Shown here piece after piece: positions 3,440 through 6,803 of a DNA stretch of 48,796 bases (its first letter is position 1; each line of letters begins with the position of its first letter). This DNA comes from Heterodontus francisci. Lineage: Eukaryota. The stretch lies in NCBI RefSeq assembly GCF_036365525.1, contig NC_090419.1, positions 11,780,001-11,828,796 of the forward strand. The letters are read 5' to 3'. The notes under the pieces are model-generated. The model did no database searches. It was not told the origin of the DNA and saw only the letters and a program-made list of their open reading frames with translations. Position numbers and translations under genes: made by a program.

Positions 3440-6803
<3,364 letters not shown>

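Follow-up and report, generated by a model that had tools for sequence, protein, structure and literature searches.

The shark Heterodontus francisci carries an amplified type of alpha-tubulin gene, here called A, that encodes glutamine instead of lysine at residue 40 and glutamine instead of glutamate at residue 290. The explanation that we favor, tentatively and at a probability just short of even, is that type A is a conserved isotype in which K40Q and E290Q each drop a charge, weakening the lateral contacts between protofilaments much as acetylation of K40 does. These genes represent an amplified vertebrate instance of a Q40 tubulin, set within an apparently undescribed elasmobranch tubulin clade with an extra intron, no terminal tyrosine and repeated amplification; a literature search that took in few subscription journals turned up no paper on this clade and none on a vertebrate tubulin with a natural Q40.

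Two gene types alternate in a tandem repeat

The window, i.e., the whole stretch of 48,796 nucleotides that was analyzed, is one end of a larger array (G000:C49:11.78-11.83 Mb). It contains a tandem A+B repeat on the + strand (2330..34187) with a unit of ~12.7 kb, 97-98% identical between copies, which runs on upstream for ~80 kb on contig C49, forming an array of 16 genes that includes an inverted arm. Within the repeat, genes of type A alternate with genes of a second type, B, all on the + strand. The spliced model of the alpha-tubulin gene A1 (3440..6803; exons 3440-3442, 4354-4576, 4690-4838, 5308-5988 and 6507-6803) specifies a protein of 450 amino acids with Q40 and Q290 and without a C-terminal tyrosine: codon 40 is CAG (4468..4470), as is codon 290 (5800..5802), which specifies glutamate in B, in a sister cluster described below and in canonical tubulins. 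It is followed by the alpha-tubulin gene B1 (9047..12245; 451 amino acids; K40 at 9567-9569, E290 at 11232-11234 and N101K at 9863-9865), then by A2 (16100..19462; Q40 at 17125-17127, Q290 at 18457-18459), B2 (21707..24909; K40 at 22227-22229, E290 at 23895-23897) and A3 (28879..32255; Q40 at 29905-29907, Q290 at 31237-31239), the last gene of the array on the window side. The proteins of A2 and A3 are identical to that of A1, and B2, like B1, encodes 451 residues. All five genes have uninterrupted frames, five exons and GT-AG introns in their spliced models, and the codons that the original prediction had read at residue 40 (CAG at 4468, 17125 and 29905 in type A, AAG at 9567 and 22227 in type B) are exact.

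Exons of A1 and B1 match the tubulin GTPase (PF00091) and C-terminal (PF03953) families above the curated cut-off, and 60 of 60 PDB matches listed for exon 2 are named alpha-tubulin or tubulin. A gap-free alignment to solved alpha-tubulins places the glutamine on K40, with the MREC start and the numbering in register. Between A1 and B1, exon 2 differs at 6 of 223 bases, and codons 10-75 differ by Q40K, two silent changes and nothing else. The near-identity that had been noted holds for this exon; the whole proteins (a pair 95% identical) differ at 22 residues, of which residue 40 is one.

A canonical paralogue shares ~91% identity with a window gene across 438 residues. An extra intron follows codon 352 (5989-6506 in A1) in every complete gene of the clade on C49 (25/25), and is absent from the four-exon genes on contigs C51 and C7. 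Neither A nor B genes combine the features of the canonical TUBA1 type, namely four exons, K40 and an acidic tail ending in tyrosine. Their tails (6760-6803 and 12200-12245), like those of their clade relatives, are short, lack the C-terminal tyrosine and contain two basic residues, and the net tail charge is -4/-5 in the clade versus -8 in canonical paralogues. Such a short tail without tyrosine would leave no detyrosination cycle and fewer glutamylation sites.

The N101K substitution, which falls in the DAANNY motif, is present in two of the seven B copies (B1 and the gene at G000:C49:11776977); N101 is a nucleotide-contacting residue, and these copies may be impaired. Upstream of B lies a duplicated fragment resembling a promoter and exon 1 (window 8570-8650), its start codon altered, while a similar fragment with an ATG and a donor site near 34.1 kb (34103) marks the end of the array. 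The window also holds a G-rich tandem repeat (38330-41367), whose self-match offsets rise in steps of ~27 bases, and, at 43955-47693, a directly repeated segment of 1.66 kb with 99.1% identity.

The array and other alpha-tubulin loci of the genome

Exon 2 has at least 48 matches in the 6 Gb genome (50 candidates scored). The array (C49, 11.70-11.81 Mb) comprises 16 complete genes, i.e., seven A genes with Q40, two A-type genes with K40 and seven B genes with K40, giving a Q40:K40 ratio of 7:9. A sister cluster of the same clade on C49 (11.95-12.05 Mb) has nine complete genes, K40 in 9/9, and for the clade on this contig the ratio is 7:18. Two 5'-truncated B genes and partial or broken matches in the sister cluster were excluded from the counts. 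Contig C1300, a candidate for additional copies, was rejected as a redundant assembly piece, G000:C1300:1-27294 being 100% identical to C49:11751019-11778312 (27,294 bases), and its five genes were removed from all counts. Two proteins that carry the name Heterodontus francisci in the database have the same sequence as models from the sister cluster.

All 16 complete array genes (16/16) are free of internal stops and have GT-AG introns, a TATA box and an ATG exon; judged by frame, splice sites, promoter and selection, they look functional. The 1:1 pairing of A and B that had been proposed is seen in the window but not beyond it, where two of the nine A-type genes have K40 and the ratios are those given above. 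The alternation follows mechanically from the amplification of a two-gene unit.

The two A-type K40 genes (G000:C49:11717305(-) and 11745567(+)) differ from the Q40 copies by S38I, Q40K and S41T, all within ten bases, and one of them also has a B-derived tract spanning codons 127-187. In a coding-sequence tree of the array, with low support and mosaic haplotypes, K40 in these two genes may be either ancestral or reverted. At the inversion center of the array (G000:C49:11721500-11727500) stand two head-to-head B genes without 5' exons.

Elsewhere, at least six canonical genes lie on C51 and C7, each with four exons, K40 and a tyrosine at the end of the tail; a seventh has a variant loop. A four-exon alpha-tubulin cluster of divergent paralogues on C7 (12.42-12.78 Mb) has R40 in four genes (two of them partial in the stretches examined) and W40 together with Q290 in one. 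For alphaTAT1, the genome contains two PF05301 matches and four exon-like stretches (exons, rather than a whole gene model); since these exons are kept, B should remain acetylatable, as expected of the regulatable partner that had been envisaged.

Selection on the array copies

The seven Q40 copies, which differ by 21 silent variants and one replacement variant (pS 0.027, pN 0.0003), are under strong purifying selection; the seven B copies have 15 silent and two replacement variants. Fixed differences between A and B amount to 20 replacement and 15 silent codons; inside the types, the corresponding counts are 3 and 36 (Fisher p=4e-6). This fits A and B being two diverged, maintained isotypes, shaped by adaptive change or by relaxed post-duplication selection, and the excess of fixed replacements may come from relaxed selection just after duplication. 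Intact Q40 genes under purifying selection support the proposal of a genuine, conserved isotype A that is not open to acetylation at residue 40.

Q40 is fixed among its seven copies, with silent variants segregating at codons 37, 47, 51 and 59, and it stays constant even where the intron-1 haplotypes of the A copies have diverged strongly. Six residues vary among the nine A-type copies, four of them (4/6) in codons 36-41, where all variation not due to gene conversion is found. The step from AAG to CAG is a change of one base, one of the seven single-step missense changes available to AAG, and the Q40 copies (three in the window, seven in the array) trace back to a single event and do not count as independent cases. 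When sequencing runs were searched with the words of the stretch, no run reached half of them; the shares were 0.05-0.15, from four other organisms and marine metatranscriptomes, and carry no weight as evidence of expression.

Residue 40 among elasmobranch relatives

Protein searches and cluster look-ups gave at least 43 relatives within the clade, drawn from 11 further genera of sharks, skates and rays. This set takes in 15 of the main cluster's 36 members, and several of its entries are fragments without residue 40. The search with exon 2, crowded by fused multi-copy gene models, gave the skate and Exaiptasia leads. In quick protein trees with SH-aLRT support, the clade forms a single branch apart from canonical tubulins (SH-aLRT 99-100, three trees). 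It is defined by the derived residues C108-S109, V190, C193, K397 and Q419-D420, which are present in the window genes. Among the matches listed, named clade members come from sharks, skates and rays only, and none is from a holocephalan or a bony fish. An ancient A/B orthology with the skate subtypes was considered and found no support, shark and skate genes clustering by lineage.

Q40 was found in none of the 43 clade proteins of the 11 other elasmobranch genera (again with 15 of the 36 main-cluster members, and some fragments without residue 40). In skates, six proteins from two genera have S40, a fragment also has S40 and another entry has L40. R40 is found in three members of a divergent subclade and in Heterodontus's own member of it; over the clade and the other paralogues, six residues occur at position 40 (K, Q, S, L, R and W). 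In a background of 353 tubulins, a set skewed to top matches, residue 40 is readable in 286 proteins and is lysine in 271; glutamine aligned there in five, most clearly in Exaiptasia P0092. As far as these sequences go, K40 is the norm and Q40 is a recent, one-base change in Heterodontus. The original prediction had named free variation of residue 40 among relatives as evidence that would count against it, and such variation is found in part: S, L and R occur, but K40 is the norm. Loss of K40 recurs in the clade, and to different residues. Since skates lost it separately, to serine, what recurs is the lost lysine and not glutamine mimicry; with arginine in the divergent subclade as well, the notion of glutamine as a specific mimic finds no support here.

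The strongly diverged subclade, with members from sharks and a sawfish (G000:C463:234718; P0297, P0299, P0302, P0303, P0305, P0306, P0308 and P0397-P0400), has a K40 loop that is basic (R40 or K40) and an M-loop/H9 region that has been rewritten, and possibly corresponds to a specialized lattice.

A second site at residue 290

Compared with both B and the sister cluster, type A has exactly two private residues, at positions 40 and 290 (K40Q and E290Q). All six full skate S40 proteins (6/6) have Q290, and their K40 sister (Rhinoraja P0245) has E290, likewise the other typical K40 members where the position is readable. Q290 is also present in the W40 gene on C7 and in the pair of A-type array genes with K40. 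In the background of 353, it was seen in 0/15 non-K40 proteins, and it aligned at this position in three proteins with K40; most non-K40 tubulins from outside the chondrichthyans have E290 or D290. Given a change at residue 40, the chance of a shared change at 290 is ~0.09 (8 skate-branch sites out of 77 variable ones), or 0.01 for both sites, for a coupling that was spotted after the fact. Type A retains the partner residues E55, K60, R123 and H283. A constraint uniting shark A and skate S40 in one clade was rejected (p-AU 0.0104, on a quick tree and for a group chosen after the trees were inspected), which argues that the 40/290 pair arose twice; we regard the coupling of 40 and 290 as a lead rather than a result.

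Discussion

The loop that contains K40 is disordered. In published work, K40 is located near the lateral interface and its acetylation weakens lateral electrostatic contacts (PMC6535015), while a simulation describes a salt bridge between R123 and E290 of the neighboring alpha-tubulin (PMC10519996). On the explanation that we favor, K40Q and E290Q would remove two interface charges, resulting in looser side-to-side contacts without the involvement of an enzyme; type A would be expressed, would co-polymerize with K40 isotypes and would soften the lattice. What matters would be the loss of the lysine (its charge, and its role as an acetyl, methyl and lactyl site) and not the glutamine itself. 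Atat1-knockout mouse neurons are reported to be rescued by K40Q and not by K40R (PMC5158137), in agreement with the premise of the original prediction that K40Q acts as a mimic in some assays, and the natural A40 of TUBA8 is described as functionally required (PMC12977328). Against the proposal, the concentration of A-type variation in codons 36-41 also suits a relaxed loop. In P. berghei, Q40K left growth and infectivity unchanged (PMC12795560), and in C. elegans neurite growth was little affected by either K40Q or K40R in MEC-12 (PMC11216746).

It is distinctly possible, though not what we expect, that K40Q is instead a near-neutral passenger that arose once in a loosely constrained luminal loop and spread to seven copies via unequal crossing-over and gene conversion, with selection acting on the tubulin and not on residue 40. 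A single-base change suffices, four of the six variable A-type residues cluster around it, and the two I38-K40-T41 copies sit on backgrounds almost identical to those of the Q40 copies, so that the loop tract would be exchangeable. The variability of residue 40 in the clade and its paralogues (K, Q, S, L, R, W) points the same way, as do the harmless Q40K of P. berghei (PMC12795560), the mild phenotypes in C. elegans (PMC11216746) and the assembly of Tetrahymena doublets, intact without acetylation (PMC11006419). Such a passenger would, however, have become fixed despite diverged intron-1 haplotypes and nearby segregating silent sites, in a position where K40 is retained in 271 of 286 readable background proteins, and the parallel 40/290 pair in skates would be unexpected.

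Selection of glutamine specifically as an acetyl-lysine mimic, the repeat unit fixing pre-acetylated and regulatable tubulin at 1:1, seems quite unlikely. The strict A/B alternation in the window and most of the array, the alphaTAT1 exons, the rescue of mouse neurons by K40Q (PMC5158137) and one Toxoplasma background in which K40Q is reported as viable and K40R is not (PMC4863603) all accord with it; yet any two-gene unit alternates once amplified, the ratio of Q40 to K40 genes is 7:9 for the array and 7:18 for the C49 members of the clade, next to at least six canonical K40 genes on C51 and C7, the skates have serine, and a later Toxoplasma study describes little effect of acetylation loss. 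The hard-wired 1:1 mimic reading was overstated. We consider it very unlikely that A, comparable to TUBA8, serves to escape K40 acetylation, methylation and lactylation together with the luminal readers, and so behaves as unacetylated tubulin. The lost lysine is indeed the sole feature common to skate S40 and the R40 subclade, the function of TUBA8 has been ascribed to its alanine or to the missing modifications (PMC12977328), and a clade without the C-terminal tyrosine is one that sheds modification sites, but this would leave E290Q on the same branches unexplained, and both K40 losses in the typical subclade led to neutral residues and not to the charge-keeping arginine.

An encoded non-K40 isotype, even one with glutamine, is an already known kind, and the idea is not new. 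P. falciparum has alpha1 with K40 and alpha2 with Q40 and retains alphaTAT, and rodent Plasmodium has Q40 in both (PMC12795560); the same mimic hypothesis was proposed and tested there. As in the shark, a K40 isotype and a natural Q40 one coexist in P. falciparum and alphaTAT is kept, but Plasmodium is a protist with two single genes and a divergent flanking loop, whereas the shark is a vertebrate with seven amplified Q40 copies, an otherwise near-canonical loop and a coupled E290Q. Acetylatable and non-acetylatable isotypes also coexist in C. elegans, where K40 is reported in MEC-12 alone of nine and is thus the exception, unlike in the shark, and where engineering K40Q caused no more than mild defects in branching and regeneration (PMC11216746). 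The skate S40 proteins (Amblyraja and Leucoraja 'tubulin alpha chain-like' P0226, P0242, P0244, P0249, P0253 and P0255) belong to the same clade and to a multi-gene family with K40 and non-K40 subtypes, and have Q290 alongside the loss of K40; they differ from shark A by serine and a separate origin (AU p=0.0104), are known from database entries, and we found no functional description of them. Exaiptasia P0092 shares a natural Q40 in an otherwise ordinary loop, present in both tubulin copies of the entry, but is a fused, truncated cnidarian gene model whose name, 'Tubulin alpha chain, testis-specific', was assigned automatically and says nothing about tissue. Mammalian TUBA8 is, like shark A, a vertebrate isotype that is unmodifiable at residue 40 and lacks a terminal tyrosine, but it has alanine and is a single gene, whereas the shark genes fall in the elasmobranch clade (in trees without TUBA8). 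The TUBA8 loop is strongly diverged. Residue 40 does matter for TUBA8 function, its A40 being needed for dendrite growth in mouse (PMC12977328).

Whether K40 acetylation acts simply via charge removal at the lateral interface is still debated, and K40Q is a contested laboratory proxy. The 95% identical isotype pair, the A-type genes that differ only at 38, 40 and 41, and the independently evolved skate S40 constitute natural, selection-tested alleles for this question, and E290 is suggested as a specific second site for the mechanics. If K40Q were near-neutral, a vertebrate could drop K40 from many tubulin genes without cost. A broader proposal, which we regard as doubtful, is that elasmobranchs possess an undescribed, amplified alpha-tubulin family that has produced a 'soft lateral contact' isotype two times or more via paired charge loss at 40 and 290 (Q40/Q290 in this shark, S40/Q290 in skates), with each lineage retaining it next to acetylatable siblings. 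If true, this isotype would be a gene-encoded, enzyme-free vertebrate counterpart of K40 acetylation, and E290 would be its partner site in microtubule mechanics.
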